DNA of 64,000 bases from an uncultured bacterium (GTDB lineage: Bacteria > Patescibacteriota > Minisyncoccia > UBA6257 > 2-01-FULL-56-20): NCBI GenBank assembly GCA_963718575.1, contig OY970358.1, positions 98,723 to 162,722 of the forward strand. Reading direction: 5' to 3'. The notes beneath the pieces are model-generated. The model was not told where the DNA came from. It saw only the letters and a program-made list of their open reading frames with translations, and ran no database searches. The position numbers and the translations under genes were made by a program. Positions 1 to 20,624 of the stretch are shown piece after piece (the first letter of the stretch is position 1; each line of letters opens with the position of its first letter).

Positions 1-294
1 CCTTTGGCGAAAGTAAGCAAGCTCTATGCCTACGCATATCCCGCGATTGAGGTTTATCTCGGCGTGTCGTACACTTTCCGCCTTTTCTCGCTCACGGTCG
101 CTGATTTCCTGACTGTCATCATCCTTGGCATCGCGACTGTCGGCGTTATCAACGTGTTGGACAGTGAAACGCCAGTGCAATGCGCCTGTCTTGGCGGATT
201 TTTCAGCATCCCGATCACATGGGTTACGTTTCTAGAAAATATCCTGATGATCGCCATGGCAGTCTCAATGCAGTTCGCCATTTGGAGAATCTAA
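1..294 (+). CDS. C-terminal fragment of a MauE/DoxX-like polytopic membrane protein (gene begins upstream of the window)
   Basis: The frame is open from the window edge. The protein is hydrophobic, with TM helices and a 'CACLGG' motif resembling the CGCFG motif of MauE-family proteins. Confidence 0.3.
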   Translation, partial: PLAKVSKLYAYAYPAIEVYLGVSYTFRLFSLTVADFLTVIILGIATVGVINVLDSETPVQCACLGGFFSIPITWVTFLENILMIAMAVSMQFAIWRI

Positions 295-300
295 AGAAAA

Positions 301-328
301 GAGCCCCGGACAGAATCGTCGGGGGCTC
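301..328. terminator. Bidirectional rho-independent terminator hairpin (gagccccggac-N6-gtcgggggctc)
   Basis: An 11-bp stem with one mismatch. A T-run follows on the minus strand (ctaaagaaaa on plus), directly downstream of minus-strand gene 347..967. Confidence 0.5.
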
Positions 329-346
329 GGTTATGAGATTGAAAAC

Positions 347-967
347 TTAGGCTGCCGCGCTGACGAGGACAAGCTCCTCGTCATGAACGACTGCCGGAAG
401 GGCGTGCAGCACGGCTCGCATGCGCCGCCACATGGTGAGTTGATCGGGTGTGACGTCCGTTCCGCGAATGGTCGGACGATATTCGATGTTTGTCCGGCCG
501 TAGGCATGGCGACGGGACTCGTTGAAAGCGCGAACCCAGTTCCGCCACGTGCCATCGGCATACTGTTCCGTGGTTACGCCGCCGCATCCGCAGTCCATTG
601 AGAACTCGACGCGACAGCCGTGGTTTCGTTCAGCCCAGTCGGAGGCCTTCTGCCACATGTAACTGCCGAGCGCGGTGTTCTCCATCCATTCGACGATGCC
701 GTCCATCTCGGGGATTTTAACCACCGTTCGTGGCTCGTCGGGATCGATGCCGGCGAAGGGAATATAACGGACGCCGCGCCGGTCAGGTTCAACGGAAAGG
801 ATTCCGGCGAAGAGAACGAGATCGGCGGTAAGCGGGACGCATCCGTCCACGCTCATCGCTTTGAGCATCCCTTCGAAATCAATACCCGGGAAGTGGCTTC
901 GCAGTATCGGAACGTCTTCCGCTACCGCTGGCCGTTCCCAGGGCTGGTTCCTCGTTTGTACGCACAT
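347..967 (-). CDS. hypothetical protein with a DCGCGG cysteine motif
   Basis: A 206-aa ORF whose terminator lies immediately downstream. It has no family I recognise. The neighbouring genes also carry Cys motifs. Confidence 0.3.
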   Translation of the reverse strand: MCVQTRNQPWERPAVAEDVPILRSHFPGIDFEGMLKAMSVDGCVPLTADLVLFAGILSVEPDRRGVRYIPFAGIDPDEPRTVVKIPEMDGIVEWMENTALGSYMWQKASDWAERNHGCRVEFSMDCGCGGVTTEQYADGTWRNWVRAFNESRRHAYGRTNIEYRPTIRGTDVTPDQLTMWRRMRAVLHALPAVVHDEELVLVSAAA

Positions 968-1044
968 AGGTTACTGCTCCTTTGCAAAGGATTGAGATCA
1001 GCTCATCTGACGACGAACTGCTCTAATCATACCGCATATAAAAA

Positions 1045-1069
1045 TTGCCCGCAGGGGTTCTGCGGGCAA
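1045..1069 (-). terminator. Intrinsic terminator (ttgcccgcag-GGGTT-ctgcgggcaa, then a T-run on the minus strand)
   Basis: A perfect 10-bp stem, with a U-tract after the stem on the minus strand. It lies 27 bp downstream of the stop of gene 1096..1461. Confidence 0.6.
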
Positions 1070-1095
1070 CGATAGGGGTGGCGTAGCAGCGTGTG

Positions 1096-1461
1096 CTACA
1101 TGTGCATGTGTGGGTCCATGTGCTCCATTGTTTTGTCGTTTCCTATCCACGGGAAGATGTGGTGCCGATGAGGATACCAGAGGGCGAGGACAACGACAGA
1201 GATTGCGACGACAATAATGCGGTTGGTTTTGTTCGTCTTTTTCCATCGCGAGAACGACCAGATAATACAGCCGATCGAGATGAGAAAAAGAAGCGGGACG
1301 AACTTGTGGATGTTCGCGGCGAACGCGGTTCCGATGCCGAGCGCCGAAAGCGCTATGGCGATCAAACACGGAACATGGGCGAGCAACGAGACGCCGACGA
1401 GACTCGCGCTCTTCGAGCAATCGCATCGGCCTTCGGGACACGTGCAGCAGGCGCAGGGCAT
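1096..1461 (-). CDS. small Cys-rich membrane protein (N-terminal CACCTCPEGRCDC, three predicted TM helices)
   Basis: The ORF is hydrophobic and followed by a strong terminator. It overlaps an alternative 175-aa ORF in another frame, and its function is unknown. Confidence 0.3.
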   Translation of the reverse strand: MPCACCTCPEGRCDCSKSASLVGVSLLAHVPCLIAIALSALGIGTAFAANIHKFVPLLFLISIGCIIWSFSRWKKTNKTNRIIVVAISVVVLALWYPHRHHIFPWIGNDKTMEHMDPHMHM

Positions 1462-1706
1462 TGACGGCTCCTTTCTCCTGGCGAGAGCTGGAATAAGTAT
1501 AAATGTTTTTAGAAATAAAAGTCATAACAGAGATGACCGTACTCGGAATCGGACCAATTTCAGGACAAAATTAAAGAAAATCGAAAATGAGAATGCAGGT
1601 TTTATGGGCTTAAAATAACGAAGAGTTCGATTGTAAGCGCAGCAGCCGACAGGATATAATGCAGTGCAAACTGGGTCGGGTCAAAACCCCGACTGTGGGT
1701 TGCTCG

Positions 1707-4676
1707 CTATTCCCTTAAATCGAATATCTTCTGGGCAACTAAATCGAACATTTTCTTCTCAATGTATTTTTTGAGTTCGGAATTTTCAGTCAACTGCTCC
1801 CATAGCTTTCGATCGCTCTCAAATTGATCATCCACCTTCTCGGTAAACACCCCTCCAAAATGTACCGATGCATTTTGCTTCGTATTGTTCGTGACCACGT
1901 TTTGCAACTCCTCATCCGAAGATAGCTCCTCCGTCATAGCGCCCAAAGTTTTTTGTTGCCCGACACCAAAATCAACACCCCACCGTTTATTAACGTCCTG
2001 AACGATTTTAGATAAAACATCCTCAATTTCTTGTGGGGGCGCTTCAGGAATTGGCTCGACTTGGCGCACATCTCCGGCATTGCCCTCTAAACGTATTTGC
2101 ATTTTTAGCTTTCGAACAACACGAACTGAATCAACATCCAGATAATCCAAGATTTCTATCAACGGCCGCCGAGGATCGCGCGGAAGTTTTTTAAGAAGAT
2201 ATTTGAGTAAGAGGTAAAGTTTTTCGTGAGAAATGTCTGAATAGCCAAGCACCTGCGCAATAAACGGATATCGCTTAACATAACTACTCGCGACGCTCAG
2301 GAATCTTCCATATTCATTCTCTACAACAATGCCCGAGTCATCATTTTTGTGATTTAGCAAAACAACCTTATCCGCAATTTCGTCGAGGAAGGCGTTGGCT
2401 TCTTTATGAATTTCTCTAGATTCCGGATCTAATAAGTCCGCGAACCGTTTGAGGACTTCTTCAGGAATCCGGAAAATCATAAAGAGTTCTCTGCGCAAAT
2501 CATTTAAGGAATTAATATCGGTCCCCTCCGATAAAATGGTGCTGGTATAGTAGGGCTCAAAAGACCGTTTTATATCGTCCGTCTCATTAACGAAATCGAG
2601 CACAAACACCTCATCCTTACCACGCGTAGTCCGGTTAAGTCTCGAAAGGGTTTGCACCGCCTGAACTCCAGAAAGTCTTTTGTCGACGTACATGGCACAG
2701 AGATAGGGTTCATCGAATCCGGTTTGAAATTTTTCTGCAACGATCAGAAAGCGATATTCCGGCTTTTTAAATTCTCTGGCCGTATTGTTTTCGGGGATAC
2801 CATCGTTTATAGAGGCTTCGGTATACGAAACCCCATCAATCTCTATCGTATCCGTAAAAGCCGCGAGAGTTTTATAGGGATAATTATTTTTTTGAAGATA
2901 AGCATCCAGTTCCAACTTATAGCGCACGGCAGCTTCGCGAGATGATGTGACTATCATCGCCTTCGATTCCCCGCGAAGAAGGCTGGAAATCGTGTTCTCA
3001 AAATGGCCAAGAATTACGTCTATTTTCTGCTGAAGTGCGACTTCGTGAAGATGCACATAATGCAATATCGCCGAAAGTGCGCGGCTTCGAGGAACCATAG
3101 GGTCTTGTGCCGCTTTTTTGATCAGCTTAAAGTAGGTCTTATATGTCGTGTAGTTGGTCAAAACGTCGACAATAAATCCCTCTTCAATCGCTTGACGCAT
3201 AGAATAAAGACTGAAGGGCTTAAACGATCCGTCATGCTCTTTCTCGCCAAAACGTTCCATAGTTTCATGGCGCGGTGTCGCGGTAAAAGCAAAATAGCTC
3301 AAGTTGTTCGGTTGCCTTCGACTGATGACTTGCTTTAATAGCCATCCTTCCGGGTCCTCATCGTTTCTTCCAATAACTTCGTGAACGGCACGTACTGTCT
3401 CTCCAGATTGCGAAGAATGAGCCTCATCGACAATCAAGGCAAAATGTTTTCCCGGCATGGACCCGATTGTATCTATGATATATGGAAATTTTTGTATCGT
3501 TGTCGTAATAATTTTCGCGCCTCCTTCTAAAGACTCTCTCAATTTACTGGACGTATCTTGATCGCCGACGGTGACGAGTACGCCAGGAGTTGAAGCAAAC
3601 GACCCTACCGTTTCCCTGAGTTGTTTATCCAAAATACGACGATCAGTAAGTACAAGCACCGTGTCGTAGACCTTCTTATTTTCCTCGGTGTGCAATTCTG
3701 CAAGACGATAGGCAAGCCATGCGATCGTCATGCTTTTGCCGCTCCCTGCACTATGTTGGATCAGATAATTTTTTCCGGCACCACTATGACGAGCCCCTCC
3801 CATCAAATCTTTCACTGTATGCCATTGATGATATCGTGGAAATACCTGAACCAGGACTCGATATTCCTTACCGTTTCGATCTTCTCTTACTTCAGTATAT
3901 GTGTGAACAAAAAATTGCAGCAAGTCGGACCAGTTATCGGGCGACCATGTTTCCTCCCACAAATAGTGGGTTTTATGCTTCTCTCCGGCTGGAGGGTTGC
4001 CCGCTCCATCTTTAAACCCCTTGTTAAATGGGAGGAAATAGGTCTGATCTTCTTTGAGATGAGTCGTGAGGTAAGCTTCGCTCGTATCGACGGCAAAGTG
4101 GGCTATGCATCGACGAAATGAAAAAAGTTTTTCGTCAGGATTGCGATCCGTGCGATATTGTCGCATCGCGTGATGAACATTCTGTCCCGTCAACTCATTT
4201 TTCAATTCTGCCGTCATAATAGGCAAACCATTCACAAAAACAACGAGATCGACGGACTGCTCCGTCAGGCGACTGAATTTCACTTGTCGCATAACCGACC
4301 AGATATTTTTCTTGAACAGGTCATTTATGTCGGGGTTTAATGAAGTCACTGGCCGGAAAAACATCATATGCAAGCGAACCGGGCCTTCTTCGATACCTTT
4401 CCGTAAAACATCAATCAAGCCGCGGCTTGAGATTTCAGCATCAATGCGTCGCGTCAATCTATCTTCGAGCGAGCCACCATACATATCGGTTAATTTTTCC
4501 ATTTCTTGCGGTTGGGATTTTTTCAAAAAATCAAAAATCAAACCAACATCAATGGAAAATTCTTTATTGTAGTCGGAATCTGCATCACGCATCCGATATC
4601 CATGCATGTTTGTCAAGGTATCGGCGATATAGCGCTCAAATGCCTCTTCCTTTAGATTTTTATGAATATTTGCCAT
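1707..4676 (-). CDS. hsdR: Type I restriction enzyme R subunit (HsdR), SF2 helicase/nuclease
   Basis: A 989-aa protein with Walker A (SAGSGKSMT) and a DEAH box (LIVDEAHSS), adjacent to hsdS and hsdM. The region is AT-rich compared with the flanks. Confidence 0.9.
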   Translation of the reverse strand: MANIHKNLKEEAFERYIADTLTNMHGYRMRDADSDYNKEFSIDVGLIFDFLKKSQPQEMEKLTDMYGGSLEDRLTRRIDAEISSRGLIDVLRKGIEEGPVRLHMMFFRPVTSLNPDINDLFKKNIWSVMRQVKFSRLTEQSVDLVVFVNGLPIMTAELKNELTGQNVHHAMRQYRTDRNPDEKLFSFRRCIAHFAVDTSEAYLTTHLKEDQTYFLPFNKGFKDGAGNPPAGEKHKTHYLWEETWSPDNWSDLLQFFVHTYTEVREDRNGKEYRVLVQVFPRYHQWHTVKDLMGGARHSGAGKNYLIQHSAGSGKSMTIAWLAYRLAELHTEENKKVYDTVLVLTDRRILDKQLRETVGSFASTPGVLVTVGDQDTSSKLRESLEGGAKIITTTIQKFPYIIDTIGSMPGKHFALIVDEAHSSQSGETVRAVHEVIGRNDEDPEGWLLKQVISRRQPNNLSYFAFTATPRHETMERFGEKEHDGSFKPFSLYSMRQAIEEGFIVDVLTNYTTYKTYFKLIKKAAQDPMVPRSRALSAILHYVHLHEVALQQKIDVILGHFENTISSLLRGESKAMIVTSSREAAVRYKLELDAYLQKNNYPYKTLAAFTDTIEIDGVSYTEASINDGIPENNTAREFKKPEYRFLIVAEKFQTGFDEPYLCAMYVDKRLSGVQAVQTLSRLNRTTRGKDEVFVLDFVNETDDIKRSFEPYYTSTILSEGTDINSLNDLRRELFMIFRIPEEVLKRFADLLDPESREIHKEANAFLDEIADKVVLLNHKNDDSGIVVENEYGRFLSVASSYVKRYPFIAQVLGYSDISHEKLYLLLKYLLKKLPRDPRRPLIEILDYLDVDSVRVVRKLKMQIRLEGNAGDVRQVEPIPEAPPQEIEDVLSKIVQDVNKRWGVDFGVGQQKTLGAMTEELSSDEELQNVVTNNTKQNASVHFGGVFTEKVDDQFESDRKLWEQLTENSELKKYIEKKMFDLVAQKIFDLRE

Positions 4677-4677
4677 G

Positions 4678-5913
4678 TTAGATTTTAATTTTTCCAGTCA
4701 CCGCAGCGTTAATCAGAGATGATCGATAGCTCTCAACTAATTGCCGCTGAGATTGAAATATCTCTACGGAGCGATTAATTTTCCCGCACCTCTCGTCAAG
4801 CAACTTAGCTATCGCCGTTTGTCTCGAGCGGCTCGGAACAGCTATAGGCAATGAACCCAGTCTGTATTCACCGATTCCGGGATAATTGACCCCGATTGAA
4901 TTTGCCATTACTTCGGCTAAGAAATCTTCGCTCTGGAGGGCCCAAAAAAGATAGTCACCATTGATCTGCCTTGGATGGAGGACAGCAAAACCAGTAGAAA
5001 ATACTCGGGGTCGATTTTTGTGGGTTATTTTTGCTATCGCCTTTAAATAAGTTCTCACCGTCGAAATAACCACATCCCCTTCCTCTGCCAATCGACGTGC
5101 GCGTGAAGGTGCGTCTGCAAATCTGTACAGTTGAGGGGGTTGGATTTTTCCCGTGCCATCAATATTGCCTATGTCTACATATTCGAACTCAAAATCAGGA
5201 TCGGTATTTTCAGGCAACGTTTTTTGATTTATATCAGCGATATATTTTAATTTTTTGACAGGGAATTTCTTCGAAATGTTTCGAGTTATAAGAGCGGCGC
5301 GATATTCGTTTAGCTTGTTGATTTGCAAGTTAATAAGCTCAAGGGTCTTGTCCAAAATTCTCGTACGATCTTCTAAAAAATTGCTGATTTTTTCCTGTGT
5401 GTTGATTGAAGGAACCAGGATCGGCAGATATTTCAATGCTTCGTATCCTATAGATTGGCGGACACCGCCACCCATACCATAAAATACTTTTGCGGTGTCA
5501 TAGGTATGTAATAAATAGTAAAGATAGCGAGAATCCAGTTTCTTCCTATTAACCCTTAGCCCAAGGTAGGCAGAAGTAATCATCCCCGCTTGTTTTACGA
5601 GGCCGACCCTCAAACTTTCGTGATCATTTTGTAAATCCGTCAGACGCAAGACTATATCGCCGGAATTTAGTGACTGATACGATTCGAACGACTCTGGCAA
5701 TAGGCCAAAATTTAGGTCAATGTTCCTTTGTATGATTTTCCCATAGCTCAGAGATAGAACATTCTCATTCTTGCTCGGATCGTTTTTAAGAATATTTTCA
5801 GCAGCCACCGTACGTAAAGGCAAAATCTCCCATTGATCACTGGGAATGTCCCCTACCCAAGCAATCTTGGAGGGTTTGTAATGTGTATATCCCGAATATC
5901 TTTGCCGTTTCAT
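4678..5913 (-). CDS. hsdS: Type I restriction-modification specificity subunit (HsdS), two target-recognition domains
   Basis: A 411-aa protein between hsdM and hsdR. It overlaps hsdM by 4 bp and has a bipartite TRD-like architecture. Confidence 0.75.
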   Translation of the reverse strand: MKRQRYSGYTHYKPSKIAWVGDIPSDQWEILPLRTVAAENILKNDPSKNENVLSLSYGKIIQRNIDLNFGLLPESFESYQSLNSGDIVLRLTDLQNDHESLRVGLVKQAGMITSAYLGLRVNRKKLDSRYLYYLLHTYDTAKVFYGMGGGVRQSIGYEALKYLPILVPSINTQEKISNFLEDRTRILDKTLELINLQINKLNEYRAALITRNISKKFPVKKLKYIADINQKTLPENTDPDFEFEYVDIGNIDGTGKIQPPQLYRFADAPSRARRLAEEGDVVISTVRTYLKAIAKITHKNRPRVFSTGFAVLHPRQINGDYLFWALQSEDFLAEVMANSIGVNYPGIGEYRLGSLPIAVPSRSRQTAIAKLLDERCGKINRSVEIFQSQRQLVESYRSSLINAAVTGKIKI

Positions 5914-7946
5914 ATCCCTGATTTTTTTAACAAATCACGTATTTCAACTTCACCGCTTTTTATCTCCTGCTCTATATCAGACAACTCTCTTGGATGCTCA
6001 TATTTATAAAAATATTTCGTGAACGGGATCTCGTATCCAACGATGCCCACCCGACCATCTTTTTCGTCACAGATCGAAGTATCTATCCACGCATCGGGTA
6101 CGTAAGGCTTTACTTCTCGAGTAAAATATTTGTCGATACTTTCTCCAAGCGGCACTCTTTCATAATCTTTGAGCTCATTATCTGGCTCAGAATTGCCAGC
6201 GCCATCCAAACAAACCTCCGCTCGCTCATCGCGTTTGCCGATAGTGTTTATAATCGCGTTGAGTTTTCGCTTCTGAAAAACGAGCTCAAGGTGGTCCGAT
6301 TCTTTCTTGAGTTTGGCGAGAAAATTGGGTCTATCCATAAAAACTTTTCCCTTAAGTGTCCTAACGATCTCAAATTCTGTGACGTCAAGCAAACCCTTAA
6401 GAAGTAATAAGGATTTTTCATCAACTTCAAACCTCAGCCGGAGGGGCCGCTGAATGGTAATTTCACGATAACCAAACTCGCTGACATTAAAGATTTTCGA
6501 ATATTTGCTAACTTTGAAATCACGATAGATAGTCAGTATCCGACCAATATCTTCGGTCGAAATTTCATAGCGTTTATGTCCCATATTTTTCCGCAAGGTA
6601 TGCCGGAAAGACCTTGCGTCAATAAGTTGAATTTTATCGCGCCGATCGGCGCTTTTCCGATTCGACAAGATCCATATGTAAGTGGCTATCCCCGTATTAA
6701 AAAATAATTGGTCAGGCAAAGCGACTATCGCTTTATCGAAATCATTTTCCATAATCCATCGCCTTATTTCACTTTCGCCCGATCCGGCATTGCCCGTAAA
6801 TAAAGGTGATCCGTTAAATATAACTCCGGCCACACTGCCACCTTCGGAACGCGGTTTGAATTTTGATACGATATGTTGCAGAAAAAGCAGTTGGCCGTCC
6901 GATATTCTGGGCAGTCCCGCTCCAAAACGCCCAGCAGATCCGCGTTCATGTTCGCGCTCAACCACTTCTTGGTCTTTTTTCCACTCTACGCCGTAGGGTG
7001 GGTTACAAATGACGTAGTCAAACTTCTTATCTGCATGCTGATCATTGGATAAGGTGCTTGCCTTGTCGTGCTCCCTGTCGCCACCCTTGATGTCATCAGC
7101 ATTTTCCCCCTTTAGTAACATATCCGCCTTACAAATTGCATAAGTTGCAGCGTTGAGCTCTTGGCCGAATAAATGAATCTTCGCATCTTTATTAAACTGA
7201 GTTTGAATATAATCTTTGCCGGTCGTAAGCATGCCGCCAGTTCCACAGGCCGGATCATACAACAACTTCACAATGCCAGGCTTCGATAGTTCTTTTTCTT
7301 CCCCGGCAAAAATCAGAGCCGTCATCAAACGCACAACGTCTCTCGGCGTATAGTGCTCTCCGGCGGTTTCGTTCGACTGTTCGGCAAACCGCCGAATCAG
7401 GTCCTCGAAAGCGAGGCCGATAACATGATTCGGCACCCGATCAGGGTGCAAATCGACCTTCTCGAATTCTTGCAGCACAAGATAGAGAATATTACTGCCC
7501 TCTAATCGTTCAAGCTGTTTTTCGAAATCAAATTTTTCTATAATTTCTTTGACATTATCCGAGAAGCCGTCGATATATCGACGAAGATTGCGAGCGATAT
7601 GTGCCGGATCTTCTAAGAGCTTCTTAAACGTGAACGGCGATATATTATAAAAATCGTAGCCGCTTGCGCGCCGTAGGATACGAAGGTTATGCACTTTCCC
7701 ATCCAGCTCGTTGAACTTTTCAAGAACCTTCTGTTTCGTTGGTTCAAGAGCGGCGTCCAATCTCTTGAGCACAGTCAGCGGCAGAATGACGTCTTGATAC
7801 TCGTGCGCTTTCCACGATCCGCGGAGGTGGTTGGCGATATTCCAGATTGTGTTCGAAATTTTACGATAGTTTTCTTCCATGAGGAAATCTTCAATCTGGA
7901 AACGGTTTATTAAATCTTTATTAAATTGTAGGTTCTTTGCCTTCAT
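5910..7946 (-). CDS. hsdM: Type I restriction-modification N6-adenine DNA methyltransferase (HsdM)
   Basis: Has an AdoMet motif (LYDPACGTGGML) and the catalytic NPPY motif (ICNPPYG), and spans 678 aa. Confidence 0.9.
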   Translation of the reverse strand: MKAKNLQFNKDLINRFQIEDFLMEENYRKISNTIWNIANHLRGSWKAHEYQDVILPLTVLKRLDAALEPTKQKVLEKFNELDGKVHNLRILRRASGYDFYNISPFTFKKLLEDPAHIARNLRRYIDGFSDNVKEIIEKFDFEKQLERLEGSNILYLVLQEFEKVDLHPDRVPNHVIGLAFEDLIRRFAEQSNETAGEHYTPRDVVRLMTALIFAGEEKELSKPGIVKLLYDPACGTGGMLTTGKDYIQTQFNKDAKIHLFGQELNAATYAICKADMLLKGENADDIKGGDREHDKASTLSNDQHADKKFDYVICNPPYGVEWKKDQEVVEREHERGSAGRFGAGLPRISDGQLLFLQHIVSKFKPRSEGGSVAGVIFNGSPLFTGNAGSGESEIRRWIMENDFDKAIVALPDQLFFNTGIATYIWILSNRKSADRRDKIQLIDARSFRHTLRKNMGHKRYEISTEDIGRILTIYRDFKVSKYSKIFNVSEFGYREITIQRPLRLRFEVDEKSLLLLKGLLDVTEFEIVRTLKGKVFMDRPNFLAKLKKESDHLELVFQKRKLNAIINTIGKRDERAEVCLDGAGNSEPDNELKDYERVPLGESIDKYFTREVKPYVPDAWIDTSICDEKDGRVGIVGYEIPFTKYFYKYEHPRELSDIEQEIKSGEVEIRDLLKKSGI

Positions 7947-9292
7947 TTTTCAATGATTTCTGACGCCGCCGCCAATCGCACCACCTTATCCTTGAATACC
8001 AGCCTACTCTTGAGGCACGCCAGCACTTCCCGTTTCTCTGTCACGGTACCCTCGGCAAGGAGATACTTCACGTAGTTCTTGATGTCGACCTCATCCATTT
8101 CGACTCGTTCCGGATTCGTTCCAAGGACGCTTCGCTGGAATTTGCGGAATCGCCCGACCTCTTCATCGAATTTGTGCTTGACGCCCAGCTCGTTCACGTC
8201 GATCTGATCGATGATGACGAGGAGCTGGCGGATGAGCTCATCCTCACGGATGTATCCGGCTTGGCACTTATGGTCGCGCGATCGTGTGCAGCCGTAGTAA
8301 ACGTACCGATGAGTGTTTCCATTTTTGAACTCCTTGAGTCTTTCATTCGCTGTGACGCCCGATCCACAGAGACCACACGCAATGAGCCGCGTGAAGGCAA
8401 ATTCCTTAGCTTCTCTGGCCATCTCTTTACGCTTCAACTGCGCGTTCGCTTTTTCAAAGAGTTCACGCGTTACAAGCGGCTCGTGCTTTCCCGTATAGAA
8501 ATTGCCGCTTTCTTTCGGATATTCGAGGATGCCGTAATAGAAGTGGTTTTGGATGATGAGATACACGTTGCCAAGCGTGAGATGATGATTATTTTTTGTT
8601 CTGAAATTCAGATCAAATTTGAGCCAATGGAATACCTTCATACCGCTCCATCCCTCATAGGCGAACTTCTCGAAGATCTGCTTGATGACGGGAGAGCGTT
8701 CCGGATCGACGAGAACTTGGCATTTGCGATCGCTCCTCTTTTCGTTGAGATAACCCGTCGGCGCGTGGCCGGGCCAAAGTCCCATCTCAAGTCGTGTTCG
8801 CAAGCCTCTTTTTACGTTGATCGATTTTTGATCATTTTCTAATTTTGCCTGCGAACACAGAATCATGAGCAGAAACTTCTCATTCGGATTATTCGTGAAT
8901 CGCTGGCTAAAGGTTCGTATCTCGGTGAGAAGTTTTTGATCCATGAGATCGACGAGCGATCCGAGATCTCCTGCGTTTCTGCTTAATCGATCCGGTGCCC
9001 ACGTAAGGATGCCAGTGTATCGCCCGCTCCGGATGTCCTTGAGGATCTCAGCAAAGACTGGGCGTTGGCCTGAGTCTTTCGCGGAATGTGACTCCCGCCT
9101 GATGTCCACGATCTGCAATCCCTCACGCTCGGCGAGCTGCAACATTTCTCGCACCTGACTATCGATACTCAAAACTTGTCGCTCTTCGCTCTCTGTACTT
9201 TTTCTCGCATAGAGGCAATACTTGACCTTTTCTGGGAGCGGCTGTGTCGTCGGGGTCCCCGCTGCCACGGACGCCATAGTTTGGTTTGTCAT
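7943..9292 (-). CDS. Large serine recombinase (resolvase catalytic domain + recombinase domain + zinc ribbon), LSR1
   Basis: The N-terminus (YCLYARKSTESEERQ..SIDSQ) carries the catalytic Ser/Arg motifs, and there is a C-terminal CxxC...C. Its stop overlaps the hsdM start (ATGA). Confidence 0.85.
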   Translation of the reverse strand: MTNQTMASVAAGTPTTQPLPEKVKYCLYARKSTESEERQVLSIDSQVREMLQLAEREGLQIVDIRRESHSAKDSGQRPVFAEILKDIRSGRYTGILTWAPDRLSRNAGDLGSLVDLMDQKLLTEIRTFSQRFTNNPNEKFLLMILCSQAKLENDQKSINVKRGLRTRLEMGLWPGHAPTGYLNEKRSDRKCQVLVDPERSPVIKQIFEKFAYEGWSGMKVFHWLKFDLNFRTKNNHHLTLGNVYLIIQNHFYYGILEYPKESGNFYTGKHEPLVTRELFEKANAQLKRKEMAREAKEFAFTRLIACGLCGSGVTANERLKEFKNGNTHRYVYYGCTRSRDHKCQAGYIREDELIRQLLVIIDQIDVNELGVKHKFDEEVGRFRKFQRSVLGTNPERVEMDEVDIKNYVKYLLAEGTVTEKREVLACLKSRLVFKDKVVRLAAASEIIEK

Positions 9293-9377
9293 AACTCAAA
9301 GGGGCCGCAACGGCACCCAGAAGTCCAGCCCCTCGAAAGCCTTGCAAAAGGCCCTTTAAAAGCTCTACAATCTCCCC

Positions 9378-10136
9378 ATGAATCCGGCGAATCTTCCCGC
9401 CCTCTATAACCTCATGGTGTCGCTAGTGCCTCCGGCAGTACTACTCGCAGTGCTCGCCTACTTCGTGCGCTTCTTTGGAAGAGTCATCGTTGATCAGAAA
9501 CCTTTTTGCGACGACCGCGATTGGGAGATAGAAGTCGCGGGAACTTTCTTCCTTCTCCTGCTTATAATTCTTCCGGCAGTACTCGGCGCGGTCGCGGCGT
9601 CATCGTGGGGCGGCCTCGGCACCGGCCATTGGATGCGTCTCGTTATCGTTCTCCTATTGATGTCTTGGCTTTTCATGATCAACGGCATTTTGGCCGAAAA
9701 ATTCTATGCGATAAAACTCCCTTTGGTCAATTTTTTCTTTATGTTTATTCCCCAAAAAGATCACGAAGCGCTCAAGAAGGACATGCTCACCTTCAATCGC
9801 TTTCTGCCGCTCTACGTTTTTTCCTTCATTTTCGCGTATATTTTCTCGCTGGAATACCATTCTGGAAGCGTTGCCTGGATTATCGTAACGGGAATCTTGC
9901 TTTTTATCAGCTTCATCCTCATGGCGCTCGATTTTTCGCTTCTCAAGGAACGACTGCCGCAAGTTGATATTCTTTTCATAGACAAAGATGAACCACCGAT
10001 CCGGGACGTGGCCCTTCTAAAAATAAATCAAGATAATGTGCGCATTATGGAAAAAGAGACAAAGCAGGTGATCATACTCAATAAAAGCCAGATCCGACGA
10101 ATAGAATATTTTCCACCGAAGGAATTGCAGGGATAA
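9378..10136 (+). CDS. polytopic membrane protein, hypothetical
   Basis: A 252-aa protein with 6 or more hydrophobic helices. It sits between two serine recombinases, upstream of a nuclease gene. Confidence 0.5.
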   Translation: MNPANLPALYNLMVSLVPPAVLLAVLAYFVRFFGRVIVDQKPFCDDRDWEIEVAGTFFLLLLIILPAVLGAVAASSWGGLGTGHWMRLVIVLLLMSWLFMINGILAEKFYAIKLPLVNFFFMFIPQKDHEALKKDMLTFNRFLPLYVFSFIFAYIFSLEYHSGSVAWIIVTGILLFISFILMALDFSLLKERLPQVDILFIDKDEPPIRDVALLKINQDNVRIMEKETKQVIILNKSQIRRIEYFPPKELQG

Positions 10137-10459
10137 TAAAAAAGAACAGCTCAGTCGGCTATTCTTTTGTTTCTCTCTTCCGAAATTACGATTCGATAAT
10201 TTTGTCCGCAGCCTTCTCAATTTTCCGTTCGCGCCACGCCCGTAGAATCGCCCCCGCGATGATGAGAGCGAAGATGGTGAGCGGTACTCCGCCGAAGATC
10301 AAGAGAATAATGATTGTTTCCATACGACACTGTTTTTTTGATATGCGACCTTTCACAACAATCAATGCCGCAATGGCGGGGCAAGTCCAGCGCCAAAAAG
10401 CATTGTCAAAACGGCCCAAAGCGTGATACCTTTGTAAGTAATTGAATATAAGATTGATC

Positions 10460-10610
10460 GCCTAAACCGCGCCTTCGCGTGGCATGGCATTACGCAGAAT
10501 CTCCCTTCCAGATACCAAACGCCACGTTTGGCGACTTCTGGAAGGGAGTCACTCCGAAAGGAGTGGGGCCGCAAGGCCTAAGCCAGCGTGGCGTTTTGTG
10601 TTCTGCAAAA
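10460..10610. promoter_or_regulatory. Highly structured non-coding element: ~48-bp imperfect palindrome (10501-10548), GAAA-tetraloop hairpin (10550-10565) and further inverted copies of AAACGCCACG
   Basis: Half-site ctcccttccaga...tctggaagggag surrounds ccaaacg-cca-cgtttgg. This segment lies inside the spurious 5' extension of ORF 10484. It is a candidate att site for the flanking serine recombinases, or an RNA leader. Confidence 0.45.
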
Positions 10611-10627
10611 CCCACGCCATCATTCCA

Positions 10628-11539
10628 ATGGCGATATATTCCATAGAAAACCATGCAGCAAAAAAAATCCCGGCCGTGAAGGTCGGGCTTGAGAAGGACG
10701 TGCAGAAAATATTCGAGAAAAACCTCGAGGAGATTTTAGACATCACATTCCTCGCGTCCGAATATCGGACGAGCTTCGGCGGCCGGATGGACACGCTCGG
10801 CATCGATCACAACGGCTCCCCAGTCATCATCGAATACAAACGCGGTCAGAACGATAGCGTCATCAACCAAGGCCTCTCGTATCTCCGATGGCTTTTAGAT
10901 CATAAGGCTGACTTCGAGGCGCTCACGCATCGTGCCAATATTGCGACCGCCATCGATTGGGCATCGCCGCGCGTGATCTGCGTTGCCGAGAGCTACAACA
11001 AATTCGATCTCGACACGGCCGATCTTCTGCCGATGGATATTGAGCTACTCCGTTACCGGATATATGAAAATAATATCCTCCTTGTTGAACCCGAGGTGCA
11101 ACGCAAGGTGAAAATATCAACGTCGGATATTTTCGAGAAGGCGGAGAAGCCTAAGGGCGAGTTCAGGGAAAAAATCCGACACAGCGTCGATGATCATCTG
11201 AAAACAGCGAGCCCGCAGACCCGTGAGCTTTTCGCCGCCGTCAGAGAAAAGATAACCGCCCTCGATGAATCCATTATCGAGGAATCAAAGGCAAAATACA
11301 TTGCCTATAAGCTGACGACGAACTTCGTGGACATCGTCGTCTACAAGGACTCGCTCAAGCTATTTTTGAATGTGCCGAGCGGCACGCTGATCGATTCCTC
11401 CGTGATCGCCCGAGATCTCACGAAGCCCAAGGCGATCGGCCACTGGGGCAACGGCGACTATGAAGTGAAGCTCGAACGCAACGAAGATATGGATGCCGTA
11501 ATGGGTTTGATTAAGCAGAGCTACGAATATAACAAATAA
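10628..11539 (+). CDS. PD-(D/E)xK (NucS/DUF91-like) nuclease domain protein with a C-terminal DUF5655-like domain
   Basis: Motif GGRMDTLGIDHNGSPVIIEYKRG (D..E.K). I place the real start at MAIYSIENH (10628) rather than the ORF-track start, because the upstream 48 codons are palindromic non-coding DNA. Confidence 0.6.
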   Translation: MAIYSIENHAAKKIPAVKVGLEKDVQKIFEKNLEEILDITFLASEYRTSFGGRMDTLGIDHNGSPVIIEYKRGQNDSVINQGLSYLRWLLDHKADFEALTHRANIATAIDWASPRVICVAESYNKFDLDTADLLPMDIELLRYRIYENNILLVEPEVQRKVKISTSDIFEKAEKPKGEFREKIRHSVDDHLKTASPQTRELFAAVREKITALDESIIEESKAKYIAYKLTTNFVDIVVYKDSLKLFLNVPSGTLIDSSVIARDLTKPKAIGHWGNGDYEVKLERNEDMDAVMGLIKQSYEYNK

Positions 11540-11550
11540 GTTTTTCGAGC

Positions 11551-12975
11551 ATGGCGAAAACCCGATCGGCCACGACGCAGGAAAATATCGCAGTTCGCTA
11601 CTGTCTCTATGCCCGTAAGTCGATGGAAGACGAGGAACGCCAAGCGCTTTCCATAGATTCGCAGCTTAACGAGATGCGGAAAATAGCGGAACGTGACGGT
11701 CTTATGGTTGCCATTGAAAAAATCGAATCGCATTCGGCCAAGGATTCCGGAACGCGTAAGGTGTTCAACCAGATGATCGGCGAGATCAAGGAAGGAAAGT
11801 ACAACGCGATCCTCACATGGAATCCCGACCGCTTGAGCCGTAACGCGGGAGACCTGGGTAAGCTCGTCGATCTCATGGATCAGCAACGGCTCTTCGAGAT
11901 TCGGACGTTCAACCAAAAATTCTCGAACACCCCTAACGAAAAGTTTCTGCTGATGATTTTGTGCAGTCAGGCGAAACTGGAAAACGACAACAAGCGCGAC
12001 AACGTCCAACGCGGCCTCCGGGCGCGGGCGCAAATGGGACTCTTCCCGACCTCGACTCCGATCGGCTATCTCACGTCGAACGACCGGAACCGGCCCTGCG
12101 AAAAGGACATCGATCCCGTGCGCGCGCCCGTCGTGAGGGAAATGTTCGAGAAGGTCGCCTACGAGCGTTACTCGTGCCATGACGTGCTCCGGTGGCTCGA
12201 GAAAATAAATTTCCGTTCGCCGAACAACAAGCTGGTGAGCCTGAGCACCGTGCAGAACATCCTGCGACGCACCTTTTATTACGGCCAGTACGAGTATCCG
12301 AGAGGCAGCGGAACGTGGTATCAAGGCATTCATACACCGATCGTCACGAAGGAATTGTTCGAACGCGCGCAGGAACAAATGGAACATTACAATCACGGCC
12401 ACGCGAAGGGGCGTAAGTCGACTCCGGAGTCGTTCGCCTTCCTCCGGCTCATCCGTTGCGGCAACTGCGGCGCGGGCATCACGGGTTCCGATACGTACAA
12501 GCATTTGAAAAACGGTAAGGTGCTCTTCTACCGCTATTACGCCTGCACGCAAGGCAAGAGCCGTTGGTGCCGGGAGCCCAGCATTAACGAAGTTGATCTC
12601 ATAGCGCAGCTTCTCGAAATGTTCGACCAGCTCGACATCGATCTCATAGGGACGAGGGCCCAGCTCGAGGCGGAGATCGAGAAATGGTACCGCATCGACG
12701 CCTTTGTGAGCGGCCAGCCCGTTCCGGAGCGGTCGCGGGAACGGAAGGAAATGGATTTGCGCGGATACGCGAAGGCGATATTCGAGGACGGGAGCGTCGA
12801 AGAACGAAGGGCGATGCTCCAGCATCTTAAGAGCCGCCTCATCCTCAAGGACAAGCACGTTTATCTCGACACCCTTCCGGCGGAAATAGCGGCAAAGGTT
12901 CCGCAGCCGCCCGAAGACGTGGAGAAAGATCCTCGGCTTGTGATCCGGCGCGGGCGGCGATTGCCGAAGGCATAA
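11551..12975 (+). CDS. Large serine recombinase, LSR2 (paralog of LSR1)
   Basis: YCLYARKSMEDEERQALSIDSQ... is about 60% identical to LSR1 over the catalytic and recombinase domains. A CxxC zinc ribbon (CGNCGAG) is present. The protein is 474 aa. Confidence 0.85.
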   Translation: MAKTRSATTQENIAVRYCLYARKSMEDEERQALSIDSQLNEMRKIAERDGLMVAIEKIESHSAKDSGTRKVFNQMIGEIKEGKYNAILTWNPDRLSRNAGDLGKLVDLMDQQRLFEIRTFNQKFSNTPNEKFLLMILCSQAKLENDNKRDNVQRGLRARAQMGLFPTSTPIGYLTSNDRNRPCEKDIDPVRAPVVREMFEKVAYERYSCHDVLRWLEKINFRSPNNKLVSLSTVQNILRRTFYYGQYEYPRGSGTWYQGIHTPIVTKELFERAQEQMEHYNHGHAKGRKSTPESFAFLRLIRCGNCGAGITGSDTYKHLKNGKVLFYRYYACTQGKSRWCREPSINEVDLIAQLLEMFDQLDIDLIGTRAQLEAEIEKWYRIDAFVSGQPVPERSRERKEMDLRGYAKAIFEDGSVEERRAMLQHLKSRLILKDKHVYLDTLPAEIAAKVPQPPEDVEKDPRLVIRRGRRLPKA

Positions 12976-13658: not shown

Positions 13659-14112
13659 CGACGATCTCGCCTTTTTCGTAAGACACCCAAACCATCTTTG
13701 ATCCTTTTGGTTCAACATCTTTCAACGCCTCCGGAAGTTTTTCCAGCATTGTTTTAGTGTCGGATTCGTCCATTGGCAAGACGACGGTGACCTTCTCATA
13801 TTTTATGATGCGCTCGATTCTGGCATCCGGCTTTTTCTTTTTCAAATAATCCCAAAGCTTCGTTAGAGATTTTGTAAATGCTCCCCATAAAAGACCGTCG
13901 CGCAACCATCCCCAGAGACTGAAATCCGTGAAGATTAGTTTTATAACCTCGTATACTTCCGGCAGGCCGCTTTTTTCTATATATTGAAAAACTTCGGCGT
14001 CGAATTCCTGGTCATGAAAGATCTGGGCAACCTCTTCGCGCTCTTCGTCGGTAAGGCCCTTAATACTGATCTCTATTCGATTATTTTTTGGGACGGAATC
14101 CATTTCACTCAT
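13645..14112 (-). CDS. hypothetical protein (translationally coupled to the upstream DUF2779 nuclease gene)
   Basis: The start MSEMDSVP overlaps the DUF2779 stop (ATGA). The protein is acidic and I recognise no domains. Confidence 0.4.
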   Translation of the reverse strand: MSEMDSVPKNNRIEISIKGLTDEEREEVAQIFHDQEFDAEVFQYIEKSGLPEVYEVIKLIFTDFSLWGWLRDGLLWGAFTKSLTKLWDYLKKKKPDARIERIIKYEKVTVVLPMDESDTKTMLEKLPEALKDVEPKGSKMVWVSYEKGEIVVKEW

Positions 14113-15566
14113 TTTATTTCTTTTTCTAAATTCTCCAAAATCCGCACCATTGCCATCGTATCGAGACCACAATACGTAAGCATGTCGCTTTTGATTTTCT
14201 CTCTCTCGGCCAGAGGCGTTTTTGAATCAATAAGTCGCGGCCAAGTCACCGAAGCGGTTCCACCTTCCTGAATGGCAAGTTCCTTGTAGGACAGCTCGGG
14301 CACCATGACCGGGAGAACGGCCTTGATGGACGCGCTGCCGTGAAATCCCGCATCAACATATAACTTCTTCTTGAATATGACCATGAGATCATAAACGCGG
14401 CCGTTCACCGCGTCCATGAACTCCGCATATTCGGGATAGTATTGCCCTATCTCCTTATTCCTCGGCACCTCAAATGAGGCGTACCACACGATGACGGTCC
14501 CCTTCGTGCCGATATCTTTTTCGAGCTGCGCGACCATCGCCGGTATGGGATTTTCGTCCTTCTCTGCCAGAAATTCTTTTTGCTCGACTTTGGCATCAGG
14601 CGCTTTCTTCATATGCAGCGAATATTGAAACACAATCTTCTGCCACGGGCGCGTGCCGTCGAAGGGCGGTATGGGCGATGCGAACGTCTCATAGTCCAAG
14701 AAATAGATCGGGTACACGAGCGTCGCAAGCTCTTTCTTTATCACCGCAGCGTCCACTGTTTTTGCTACGGGTTTGTATCCGAGACCCCGGAGAAAGACCG
14801 GAGAGAACGAATTACCATCGAGTACTCCTTTCTGCAACAAGCTGAGGACGAATGCTGTCGGCCAATTCTTAACGTCTAGCTTTTTTGTTGGAGCTTGAGA
14901 AAGATAGGTCTCCAAATACTCGCACGAGCCGGTCTTTGAATTGCAAGAAAGGATGACGCGATTCTCTGGGTAATCTTTGATGGCGAGGATAACACGTGCG
15001 TCGGCTATACCTTCTTTGACCTCGGGTATCAGTTCACGTGCCTCTTCTGTGACGTCTTCGGTAATAAAAAGCTTTGCGAGTTCGATGTCCCCCTTTCGGA
15101 CATATTCGTTGTTCACGTGGATCAAATATGTCTTCCCCACTTTGATGCCTGCTTCTTCAAAACAAATGAGCTGGAACGCGACGTCGTGGAGATCTTCCGG
15201 CCGAACTTTGGTTGCACTCTTCACTTCGCGAATGTCGTAGACATCTGCCGTTGGGTCATAAGTCACGATGTCCGCGCGGCACGTAAGGCCGCTCTTCGTA
15301 ATGACGGTCGGCTGGAAAATAACCTTGGTCTTTTTGTCGAAGAGTTCCTTACTCTTGCGCCAACCCTCTTCGCCAAACTCAAAAGGCTCTACGCCATCTT
15401 TGAAGAGCTTCTTCGCGAGCGCATCCACCTTTTCGCCTTCCTGTTCATGAAAGAGTCCTGACGCCGAATGAGGCGGCATAAGATGTTTGCCCTTTCGTTC
15501 CATCCAAAGATAGCAGCCGCATTCCAGATAATTCTTATAATCGGTTTTGGTGAATAGTTCGGCCAT
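14109..15566 (-). CDS. Dual nuclease: N-terminal Cas4/RecB-like PD-(D/E)xK domain with Cys cluster plus C-terminal DUF2779 (RNase H-fold exonuclease-like)
   Basis: Has N-terminal cysteines (ECGCYLW... CNSKTGSCEY), a D..EVK motif (YDIREVKSATK), and the DUF2779 hallmark YFLDYETF...QYSLH. Confidence 0.6.
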   Translation of the reverse strand: MAELFTKTDYKNYLECGCYLWMERKGKHLMPPHSASGLFHEQEGEKVDALAKKLFKDGVEPFEFGEEGWRKSKELFDKKTKVIFQPTVITKSGLTCRADIVTYDPTADVYDIREVKSATKVRPEDLHDVAFQLICFEEAGIKVGKTYLIHVNNEYVRKGDIELAKLFITEDVTEEARELIPEVKEGIADARVILAIKDYPENRVILSCNSKTGSCEYLETYLSQAPTKKLDVKNWPTAFVLSLLQKGVLDGNSFSPVFLRGLGYKPVAKTVDAAVIKKELATLVYPIYFLDYETFASPIPPFDGTRPWQKIVFQYSLHMKKAPDAKVEQKEFLAEKDENPIPAMVAQLEKDIGTKGTVIVWYASFEVPRNKEIGQYYPEYAEFMDAVNGRVYDLMVIFKKKLYVDAGFHGSASIKAVLPVMVPELSYKELAIQEGGTASVTWPRLIDSKTPLAEREKIKSDMLTYCGLDTMAMVRILENLEKEIK

Positions 15567-15567
15567 T

Positions 15568-15792
15568 TCAATTAAAATTCTTCATTAATGTCGCTACTTT
15601 TTCACCTGCGTATTTCAAAATTTCCGGCGCACACTCCTTACAATAATTTTTCGATCCGAGACTATTCCTTTCGCGAATTAATAGGTGCGATTCTCCGGCC
15701 TGTATCTTGTGCTTTTTGGTCCTATGACACTTCCGCGACTTAATTGCCGTATCAATAGAAACATGAACGAGGATGTCCCTAGTTTGCGCCAT
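15568..15792 (-). CDS. small zinc-finger protein, hypothetical
   Basis: A 74-aa protein with KCHRTKKH...YCKEC. It overlaps the helicase stop by 14 bp. Confidence 0.3.
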   Translation of the reverse strand: MAQTRDILVHVSIDTAIKSRKCHRTKKHKIQAGESHLLIRERNSLGSKNYCKECAPEILKYAGEKVATLMKNFN

Positions 15793-19410: not shown

Positions 19411-19418
19411 GACGTTCG

Positions 19419-19985
19419 TTATTTATCCCCCGGGGCGTCTGGGGAATCCGAAATGTTCAAACTCCCGGGGTCGTCCTTTCTTGTTTCTTCCTTCTTTTCG
19501 GTTGGCGCGGGCAACGGCGGTTTCGCTGATGGTTCGGTATCTTTCCATTTCTCTGTAACTGTGGGAGAGAAAACAACTTTGGTACGCGCTTTCTCTCCGA
19601 AAACATCGCCATCCTCGATCTGGTCCGACGCAAGAAGCATCTGGTAACGCATCTCGCTTATCTTCGCTATCGTATTGAGCGCCCCCAATCTGATCGAAGG
19701 GGTGATGGCATTATCGGTCGCGATGTACCATGCTCGCGCGAGCGCTTCACTCAGGTTGCCATCGTGTTCGGCAAGCGCCCGCTCCGCCGTCTGGCGACGC
19801 ACACGCTGAATCCGACGGAGGATGGCGATGTCGCGTAATCTCCCGATATAATTTTCGGTGACATTGTGAATTTCGTTCCGATTCAAGACCTTGATGAGCT
19901 CGACGACCGTGATCTCGGGATTTTGAATCCAAATTTTCCCGATTGTAGCGATGATAAATTCCCGCATGGCTTCTCCTCTGTTCAT
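19419..19985 (-). CDS. possible terminase small subunit / phage DNA-binding protein
   Basis: A 188-aa protein immediately upstream of terL, with a basic N-terminal helical region. The assignment rests on position only. Confidence 0.3.
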   Translation of the reverse strand: MNRGEAMREFIIATIGKIWIQNPEITVVELIKVLNRNEIHNVTENYIGRLRDIAILRRIQRVRRQTAERALAEHDGNLSEALARAWYIATDNAITPSIRLGALNTIAKISEMRYQMLLASDQIEDGDVFGEKARTKVVFSPTVTEKWKDTEPSAKPPLPAPTEKKEETRKDDPGSLNISDSPDAPGDK

Positions 19986-20510: not shown

Positions 20511-20624
20511 GCCCCGAAAACCCGCAACTGGGACGGGTCTGATTTTCACATTTTCTGAATCCCCTAAAAATCCTTACACGGCTTGCAAAAGCCTTTAGTC
20601 TGTAATGGCGCCACACAGCAGAAC

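Follow-up and report, generated by a model that had tools for sequence, protein, structure and literature searches.

The 64,000-nucleotide (nt) stretch of contig OY970358.1 analysed here, from an uncultured bacterium of the Patescibacteriota, is referred to as the window, and all positions are coordinates in it. Near its start the window features a gene for a large serine recombinase (LSR), LSR1, which is followed head to tail on the minus strand by hsdM, hsdS and hsdR, the genes of a Type I restriction-modification (RM) system (Table 1). LSR1 and hsdMSR probably form the tRNA-proximal end of an integrated mobile island, in which the RM system is cargo located between the integrase, LSR1, and the attachment (att) site. 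The apparent recombinase-RM operon is a consequence of the position of this cargo slot. An earlier note on this DNA had read the RM genes as cargo of an island mobilised by an LSR, and this proposal is supported by the absence of hsdS repeats, the foreign composition of the hsd genes, an att-type scar past hsdR, the tRNA targeting of the recombinase family and the variable content of the locus. The mobility, expression and activity of the window copy are predicted from sequence. Loci fetched for comparison are labelled L001, L002 and so on.

LSR1 and its recombinase family

LSR1 matches the Resolvase, Recombinase and Zn_ribbon_recom families, all above the Pfam threshold, as well as the PHROG integrase family phrog_95 (E = 3e-63). 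The family alignment determined that the catalytic YARKS motif is intact in LSR1 and invariant across 22 homologues. The publicly recorded gene starts 5 codons 3' of the start of the 449-amino-acid (aa) open reading frame (ORF). More than 8000 homologues were found at E <= 1e-10; the best 120 are 63-100% identical to LSR1, and all of these save the top three fall within 63-71%. Those of the best 120 that have a named source are mostly from Patescibacteria, also called the Candidate Phyla Radiation (CPR), with Caldisericia and WS5 also named. CPR genomes also supply most of the genome loci retrieved along with the family alignment. A metagenome scan for closer relatives of LSR1 returned homologues of at most 68% identity.

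A survey of about 230 loci fetched from genomes, metagenomes and IMG/VR revealed an association of the family with tRNA genes. Within the fetched DNA, a tRNA gene is located 3' of the LSR for 98 among 190 distinct LSR genes, and in 98/98 of these the nearest downstream tRNA is convergent with the LSR gene, i.e. on the opposite strand with the 3' ends facing. A tRNA upstream of the LSR occurs in 5 loci only, in a similar amount of sequence. The downstream tRNAs are mainly Ser (51), Gln (20) and Trp (12), and also include Asp, Asn, Tyr, Arg, Glu and Lys. This pattern is the signature of an integrase whose element adjoins the 3' side of a tRNA. The distance between LSR and tRNA is bimodal, with 78-186 nt in 19 loci, 0.65-9.4 kb in 79, and none between. 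The short-spacer, or minimal, elements feature a fixed order of a strong terminator, an arm CTCGGGTC..CGATAAAAAATTGTCT and the tRNA 3' end, and in the long-distance class the integrase and the att site are separated by inserted genes.

The region 5' of the LSR is also conserved. A promoter-like motif composed of CTGGACT, ~18 nt and GCGTCATYAAT (CTGGACT..GGTTGCGTCAT) precedes the LSR in 93/163 loci. Upstream of the LSR is a conserved co-directional module that encodes a ParB-domain N6/N4 DNA methylase (57 loci), a TerS-like protein (42) and a TerL-like protein (40, each out of 151 loci, many of them on short contigs), followed by the LSR, for example in L054 at 6766-9923. The TerL-like proteins of the family match phrog_38 with E values down to 3e-80, and LexA/S24-type repressor-like genes are often located further 5' of the module. 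Some single contigs carry two full core modules ~13 kb apart. In the proposed mechanism, elements of the family would integrate within the 3' part of a tRNA gene or beside it, with the integrase as the last core gene before att, and LSR1 would be the integrase of the island in the window.

Two further features were observed 5' of LSR genes. Tandem GTTNCCAAC(A) repeats, such as GTTGCCAACACGTTGCCAACA, are located 60-100 nt 5' of the LSR start in ~48/163 loci, including L008, L017, L024, L029 and L044. The window copy lacks these repeats, which are a possible operator or arm-type binding site. L003 features a perfect 32-nt palindrome, CCAGATTCTGGACGTCCAGAATCTGG (2484-2515), located 57 nt 5' of an LSR 71% identical to LSR1 and overlapping the CTGGAC promoter-like motif.

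The DNA adjoining the LSR is hypervariable, with 148 Pfam families among 112 proteins. Defence-type neighbours include ResIII helicases, N6_N4 and EcoRI methylases, HsdR, GmrSD and Shedu, and metal-resistance neighbours include P-type ATPases, HMA proteins and multicopper oxidases. Type I hsd genes directly adjoin the LSR in ~13/151 loci and in several orientations: nine loci have a divergent hsdM 60-209 nt upstream, two have a divergent hsdR, and in others the hsd genes are located downstream as in the window. The earlier note regarded a recombinase at the head of an RM operon as unusual; these loci show that an LSR adjoining Type I hsd genes is not a one-off.

The probable element end at tRNA-Gln

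L001 and L238 come from the same genome as the window and reach beyond the window start. They feature a tRNA-Gln(ttg) gene that is convergent with LSR1 and located 8.6 kb past the LSR1 stop, followed by sodA, fmt and def. The intact tRNA-Gln (L001 11595-11667, L238 18588-18660) is located ~650 nt beyond the window start. A search of the window with 141 nt around the tRNA-Gln 3' end as the query revealed an att-type scar composed of a degenerate tRNA-Gln 3' end and a flank motif (Table 1). The scar holds the 3' strands of the acceptor stem and the T-stem together with the T-loop, and it diverges just past the T-loop. Its two collinear matches have exactly the spacing that is found beside the intact tRNA-Gln. 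The gapless 51-mer at the scar matches at 37/51 positions, the best of 128,000 positions, with a background of 12.8 ± 3.1, a runner-up of 29 and a z of ~7.8. The scar starts 32 nt past the hsdR stop, just beyond a hairpin at 1675-1693 that occupies the same relative position as the strong terminator of the minimal family members. Because an att-type junction directly follows hsdR, the hsd operon fills the slot between integrase and att.

A metal-related module of 2.3 kb is located between the scar and the intact tRNA-Gln. Relatives L086-L089 (~80% nucleotide identity) share this module, and the homology ends at 1475-1510. The module would represent a later integration at the same tRNA-Gln that displaced the LSR1 element inward, a layout that agrees with the tycheposon model discussed below. 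An empty-site test using the 206-aa flank protein of the module found no clean empty site among the relatives, because these share only positions 1-1510 with the window; the genes to their right (YibE_F, Fur, Cmk and GatB) are absent from it. Within the module, the 175-aa ORF at 998-1525 (minus strand) of public gene callers looks spurious, being Arg-rich and without a family. The likely real gene, at 1096-1461 (minus strand) in another frame, encodes a Cys-rich 121-aa membrane protein (MPCACCTCPEGRCDC...) that is 79-85% conserved in relatives.

The restriction-modification operon

The four genes are co-directional as the earlier note described, their ORFs lie at the coordinates it gave, and their domains fit the labels. 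HsdM features the HsdM_N and N6_Mtase domains (Pfam), a full-length match to PADLOC MTase_I (E = 2e-257) and the motifs DPACGTGG and NPPYG, which are motifs I and IV of the N6-adenine methyltransferase fold. HsdS features the Methylase_S domain, and PADLOC Specificity_I matches residues 7-213 and 216-405. HsdR features the HSDR_N, SWI2_SNF2/ResIII and T1R_D3 domains, a match to PADLOC REase_I, and the motifs D-x13-ELK, GSGKS and DEAH, i.e. those of a PD-(D/E)xK nuclease and a superfamily 2 motor. By gene content, hsdMSR is a complete predicted Type I RM operon, with HsdM, HsdS and HsdR all recognised.

The junctions were read base by base. At the LSR1/hsdM junction, GAAAAATGAAGG, GAA AAA TGA overlaps ATG AAG, and at the hsdM/hsdS junction, GATATGAAACGG, ATA TGA overlaps ATG AAA, giving an ATGA overlap in both cases. 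The hsdS/hsdR junction reads TAA-C-ATG, with a gap of 1 nt. There is a complication regarding the start of hsdM. The residue equivalent to M23 (window 7880) is used as the start by 24/27 aligned HsdM homologues, and a GAGGA Shine-Dalgarno sequence is located 7 nt 5' of the M23 start. The overlap of LSR1 and hsdM is an ORF-level feature because the homologues mostly start at the M23 equivalent. The start that overlaps LSR1 is possibly not the sole one in use, and the long ORF may nevertheless be used. The two ATGA overlaps described in the earlier note are confirmed, with this caveat at LSR1/hsdM. LSR1 and the hsd genes are presumably co-transcribed.

The hsd block has a GC content of 0.436 and a GC content at third codon positions (GC3) of 0.42-0.46. 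LSR1 has a GC content of 0.505 and a GC3 of 0.60, and the host part of the window (21-64 kb) has a GC content of 0.54, with 6.2-kb chunks spanning 0.509 to 0.56. In tetranucleotide usage the hsd block lies at a distance of 0.379 from the host part, versus 0.126 ± 0.018 with a maximum of 0.172 for host chunks of the same size. The hsd genes are compositionally foreign to the host and also to the LSR1 gene that precedes them. This confirms the earlier observation that the hsd genes are AT-richer than the recombinase and the window, and the GC and tetranucleotide profile that was suggested as a check is non-uniform.

Proposed origin of the cassette and an LSR-deleted relative

The nearest relatives of HsdM (74-75% identical) are encoded in operons with the order HTH_3-hsdM-hsdS-hsdR, in ordinary chromosomal surroundings without an LSR. 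The HTH_3 gene encodes 70-74 aa and is located 5 nt before hsdM. Nucleotide homology of these operons to the window starts at ~7877, beside the M23 start codon at 7880. The start of the homology, the helix-turn-helix (HTH)-headed relatives and the M23 start together suggest that the cassette lost a controller-type gene and was placed behind the LSR. A derivation of the unique LSR1 tail from the C-terminus of the lost HTH gene was considered, but the resemblance is unconvincing. In the proposed sequence of events, a cassette with the ancestral order HTH(controller)-hsdM-hsdS-hsdR would have come from a lower-GC donor into the slot between the integrase stop and the att site, and the controller would have been lost so that the operon lies directly behind the LSR ORF.

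L245, a distant relative in which HsdM is 65% identical to that of the window, keeps the junction of LSR tail and hsdM (ATTGARAAATGA / ATTGAGAAATGA) with its ATGA overlap, and it keeps an open 22-codon hsdM extension equal in length to that of the window. It also keeps the LSR promoter-like motif GCTGGACTTCT..CCGTTGCG and, on the other strand, the 5' hairpin of the LOOT RNA motif described below. Within L245 1-300, the LSR itself has shrunk to a 12-codon mini-ORF, MSNTIHKCAIEK, which fuses the first and last few LSR codons. The hsdM and hsdS genes of L245 are intact, and hsdR reaches the contig end. L245 thus reads as an LSR-deleted derivative of an LSR-hsdMSR element. Since its LSR is reduced and its hsd genes are kept, the RM system does not appear to need the recombinase, and since the LSR promoter and the stop-start junction are retained, these appear to be the entry to the hsd operon.

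The hsd operon in the window is probably transcribed from the conserved LSR promoter, and hsdM would be started via ATGA coupling, via the internal Shine-Dalgarno-led start at 7880, or via both. A large serine integrase alone does not excise its element; as in Bxb1 and phiC31-type LSRs, recombination of attL with attR needs a directionality factor. Steady co-expression of LSR1 and the hsd genes would be tolerable for this reason. For the host the RM system would be a defence, and for the island a stabilising factor.

Exchange of cargo among relatives

L003 and L004/L005 carry the same element, with 99.97% identity over 10.5 kb, which encodes a TerL-like protein, the 71%-identical LSR, MerR, a 1591-aa helicase, WYL and DUF2779 proteins. 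The flanks of L003 and L004 beyond the tRNA-Gln are unrelated, and the first mismatches are inside the tRNA at the anticodon loop. The L003 flank, tRNA-Gln/sodA/fmt/def, is the locus of the window genome at ~68% nucleotide identity with a different element in place, so the same attB holds a different family member in a related host. The earlier note had raised the possibility of an arrangement conserved as core genome; this is not the case, as related genomes carry other content at the locus.

The LSR of L002 is 90% identical to LSR1 and precedes HTH-MTase genes, not hsd genes. Nucleotide homology between L002 and the window covers 9352-7971, i.e. from 60 nt 5' of the LSR start to 26 nt before the stop. 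The last 9-10 codons of LSR1 differ from L002, and the last 9 are unique to the window copy.

Contrary evidence and alternative explanations

Several observations weigh against the island interpretation. Over its 51 nt the scar has just 72% identity, with a different 14-nt spacer. When second copies of tRNA 3' ends were sought generically, they turned up in 4/99 loci only, so that few cases support the crossover position in the T-loop region. The tRNA-proximal junction of the island is supported, but the window yielded no distal junction: when the two proximal copies were locally aligned to its full length, no distal att copy was revealed. A scan for sigma-70 promoter and terminator consensus sequences found nothing above chance, and the hairpin at 1675-1693 was not called. 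Neither an excised circle nor an empty site or a presence/absence polymorphism was observed, and all four metagenome contigs that carry this HsdM have an identical arrangement. Additionally, the LSR-hsdM junction that is kept in L245 makes the pairing older than a very recent capture, and this age sits awkwardly with the strong compositional contrast.

Two candidates for the distal junction were considered. A 16-mer match at 58.76 kb was rejected, being inside a coding region and without Rfam support. Two TCCCAGTT sites, at 20526-20533 and 20829-20836 (minus strand), are in the expected place, the gap that separates the TerS-position ORF from the first host gene, and share the strand of the CCCAGTTTGCAC motif in the two att-proximal copies; as a candidate distal junction they are not statistically significant.

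Among the alternatives, it is improbable that the hsd operon is a separate integrase-less element, or a remnant, which arrived at this tRNA later than the LSR1 element. Successive integrations at a single tRNA do occur in the family and at this locus, where the scar is followed by a further module, tandem core modules are found on single contigs, and the hsd block and LSR1 differ in composition. However, the ORFs of LSR1 and hsdM overlap, so that an att junction cannot fit between them, the sole tRNA-like scar lies past hsdR, and the junction of LSR tail and hsdM is kept in L245. The cargo between LSR and tRNA in L003/L004 also travels with the LSR.

A decayed prophage is equally improbable. 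Here the TerS and TerL genes and the LSRs would be what is left of a degraded temperate phage, in which the RM operon landed. The TerL-like gene and the 67 IMG/VR contigs with this LSR family that are listed as viral are consistent with such an origin. The structural genes of a phage are missing, however, as the island features terminase-like genes only and the rest of the window is ordinary host DNA. No capsid, portal or tail family was matched among the flank genes of relatives that were scanned with PHROG and Pfam, a subset that is not exhaustive. The capsid-less core of ParB-methylase, TerS, TerL and LSR recurs in dozens of loci, including the tandem copies, which argues for a stable element type and not for random decay.

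It is still less likely that the recombinase is a functional partner or regulator of the RM system, such as a domesticated recombinase that controls hsd expression. The ATGA overlap, the lack of a terminator between LSR1 and hsdM, and the persistence of the junction and the N-terminal extension of HsdM in L245 at 65% HsdM identity are the features that such a role would explain. The mini-ORF that remains of the LSR in L245 beside intact hsdM and hsdS argues against it, as do the unrelated cargo headed by close LSR relatives and the nearest hsd operons, which have no LSR. The invariant link of the family is to tRNA genes and not to RM genes.

Recombinase genes beside hsd loci are a hallmark of phase-variable systems, such as the pneumococcal ivr locus and Mycoplasma hsd loci, and LSR1 adjoins hsd genes in the same way; shuffling of hsdS target-recognition domains by LSR1 is nonetheless very unlikely, since hsdS is single, there are no partial copies or inverted repeats in or near the operon, LSR1 targets a tRNA and the known systems mostly use tyrosine recombinases. 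A search of 1-24 kb found no direct or inverted repeat of hsd sequence and no flanking direct repeats beyond chance, and this absence of inverted hsdS copies speaks against phase variation, which the earlier note had also considered unlikely. The reading of hsdMSR as island cargo behind its integrase is thus retained.

Remainder of the probable island

The coordinates of the features are collected in Table 1. Ordinary host genes (MFS, HlyD/MacB, GH130, G6PD and SecA) are found from ~20.9 kb onwards, which puts the island at ~19 kb. The block of 1.7-9.3 kb in the earlier note is therefore part of a larger island that probably extends to ~20 kb, where a second LSR, further defence-like genes and a terminase-like module are also found.

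Table 1. Features of the island and its tRNA-proximal flank in the window
Feature	Position	Strand	Description
Metal-related module	4..1461	mixed	HMA/MauE C-terminal part (4-294, +), 206-aa protein (347-967, -), Cys-rich 121-aa membrane protein (1096-1461, -)
att-type scar	1625..1675	-	Degenerate tRNA-Gln(ttg) 3' end (1625-1649, 21/25) and flank motif CCCAGTTTGCAC (1664-1675, 12/12)
Hairpin GTCGGG-GTTTTGA-CCCGAC	1675..1693	-	Directly 3' of the hsdR stop; possible operon terminator; read from sequence
hsdR	1707..4676	-	Type I restriction subunit, 989 aa; Pfam, PADLOC REase_I, sequence motifs
hsdS	4678..5913	-	Specificity subunit, 411 aa, two target-recognition halves, sole copy; PADLOC Specificity_I
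hsdM	5910..7946	-	N6-methyladenine (m6A) methyltransferase, 678 aa as long ORF; alternative start at 7880 (M23) likely
LSR1	7943..9292	-	Large serine recombinase, 449 aa, putative integrase of the element; Pfam, PHROG, family alignment
Conserved LSR1 upstream region	9293..9352	-	81% identical to L002 as far as 9352; holds the promoter-like motif GCTGGACTTCT-N-CCGTTGCG
252-aa multi-pass membrane protein	9378..10136	+	Without family assignment; insertion relative to L002
LOOT RNA motif (Rfam RF03000)	10459..10579	+	Leader of the DUF5655/PDC-S18 gene; 54.9 bits (gathering score 46.4)
DUF5655/PDC-S18 gene	10484..11539	+	Candidate defence gene; Pfam, PADLOC
LSR2	11551..12975	+	Second large serine recombinase, intact, 474 aa; orientation opposite to LSR1; 11 nt past the PDC-S18 gene
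Defence-like pair	14109..17866	-	MerR-HTH/ResIII helicase (15779-17866), DUF2779 Cas4-like nuclease (14109-15566)
Terminase module	17941..19985	-	TerL-like (17941-19410), phrog_38 E = 1e-62; preceded by a 188-aa ORF in the TerS position

The LOOT motif, which Rfam lists as a small RNA of unknown role, is linked to the LSR1 family in the window, in L002 and in ~30 further loci. Three placements occur: divergent at 100-250 nt 5' of the LSR, co-oriented and directly 3' of it, and left of the ParB-MTase/TerS/TerL core. Where LOOT directly adjoins the LSR gene, its 5' end faces that gene. In the window the LOOT 5' end faces LSR1, and the copies of the window and L002 (196-318, minus strand) differ by compensatory changes in the long hairpin. 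The cargo after LOOT is varied and includes PDC-S18, Ltp lipoprotein, OB-fold and membrane proteins. The true start of the PDC-S18 gene in the window is probably near 10619, because the match begins at residue 46.

LSR2 is ~50% identical to the LSR1 family (46-54% to the fetched homologues) and may mark a second element, either nested or inverted. A T-arm pattern search near and downstream of LSR2 found no tRNA or tRNA fragment. Elsewhere, LSR2-like genes are often frameshifted and convergent with an LSR1-type gene, as in L188. Antisense to the GC-rich LSR2 gene, a 445-aa GTG ORF at 11521-12858 (minus strand) is almost certainly its shadow ORF. The gene types of the helicase and the DUF2779 nuclease also follow the 71%-identical LSR in L003. 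Regarding the core genes, the window features a TerL gene preceded by the TerS-position ORF, a LexA-like gene was not identified in it, and domain scans of the window island found no primase or polymerase.

Comparison with known elements

Islands at tRNA sites with defence cargo and LSR islands with Type I RM systems are both already known kinds of element. Tycheposons use tyrosine recombinases in 910/937 cases, some are phage-inducible chromosomal island (PICI)-like and carry terS, and in the tycheposon model a newcomer at the same tRNA displaces an older element inward (Hackl et al., bioRxiv 10.1101/2020.12.28.424599). The window family resembles tycheposons and Prochlorococcus tRNA islands in its site-specific location at tRNA genes, its cargo and the partial tRNA copies between successive elements. 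It differs in its large serine recombinase, its Patescibacteria hosts and a core with TerL and a ParB-methylase. The hallmark genes of tycheposons, a tyrosine recombinase and a replication module, were not seen in the window island, where the integrase is an LSR.

The staphylococcal cassette chromosome (SCC) elements are mobilised by Ccr large serine recombinases, some carry hsdR/S/M, and they integrate at the 3' end of rlmH (orfX). The window element would likewise be an LSR-mobilised chromosomal island with Type I RM cargo beside the recombinase gene. However, the SCC target is rlmH, SCC elements have no terminase or ParB-methylase module and they belong to an unrelated lineage; the target of the window family is a tRNA in 98/98 informative loci, and no rlmH is adjacent.

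The PICI-like elements (PLEs) of Vibrio cholerae also use an LSR integrase (PMC6002521). In predicted gene content, PICIs, PLEs and the window family share a small island with an integrase, a repressor-like gene, a terminase, no capsid and anti-phage cargo. At the family level, the integrase, repressor and packaging genes of a PICI-like element are represented by the LSR, the LexA/S24-like protein, TerS and TerL, with no full structural module. PICIs usually carry TerS only, whereas the window family also carries TerL, and no replication module was identified in it. Compared with RM operons controlled by a C protein, the nearest hsd relatives are headed by an HTH_3 gene, whereas the window has no HTH gene and the LSR ORF takes its position. 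The phase-variable Type I loci have the adjacent recombinase in common with the window, but the duplicated hsdS genes and inverted repeats are absent here.

The variant itself looks new: a tRNA-targeting serine-integrase family, spread over the Patescibacteria, that combines a terminase/ParB-methylase core and LOOT with room for cargo between integrase and att. A literature search found no paper describing this LSR island family. A wider proposal is put forward tentatively and is, on balance, somewhat doubtful. In this proposal, the ParB-methylase/TerS/TerL/LSR elements would be an undescribed and very abundant type of tRNA-targeting, capsid-less, phage-satellite-like island in Patescibacteria and the main vehicles for the exchange of defence systems (Type I RM, PDC-S18, helicase-nuclease pairs and Shedu) and of metal-resistance genes, LOOT would be the leader of cargo operons, and the LSR promoter and junction would be reused for captured RM genes even after loss of the integrase, as in L245.

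Significance

Patescibacteria have tiny genomes and are thought to be poor in mobile elements and classical defence systems. The locus in the window exemplifies one conserved integrase family that is found in hundreds of species-level genomes, with ~60-70% protein identity across the radiation, and that combines tRNA targeting with interchangeable defence and metal-resistance cargo beside the att site. The recombinase-headed RM operon is explained as a cassette without a controller gene of its own, placed behind an integrase. The family is a likely genomic home for the orphan LOOT RNA, and its natural LSR/att pairs on conserved tRNA sequence could interest genome engineers. For these uncultured bacteria, the family offers a concrete and testable route of gene flow.

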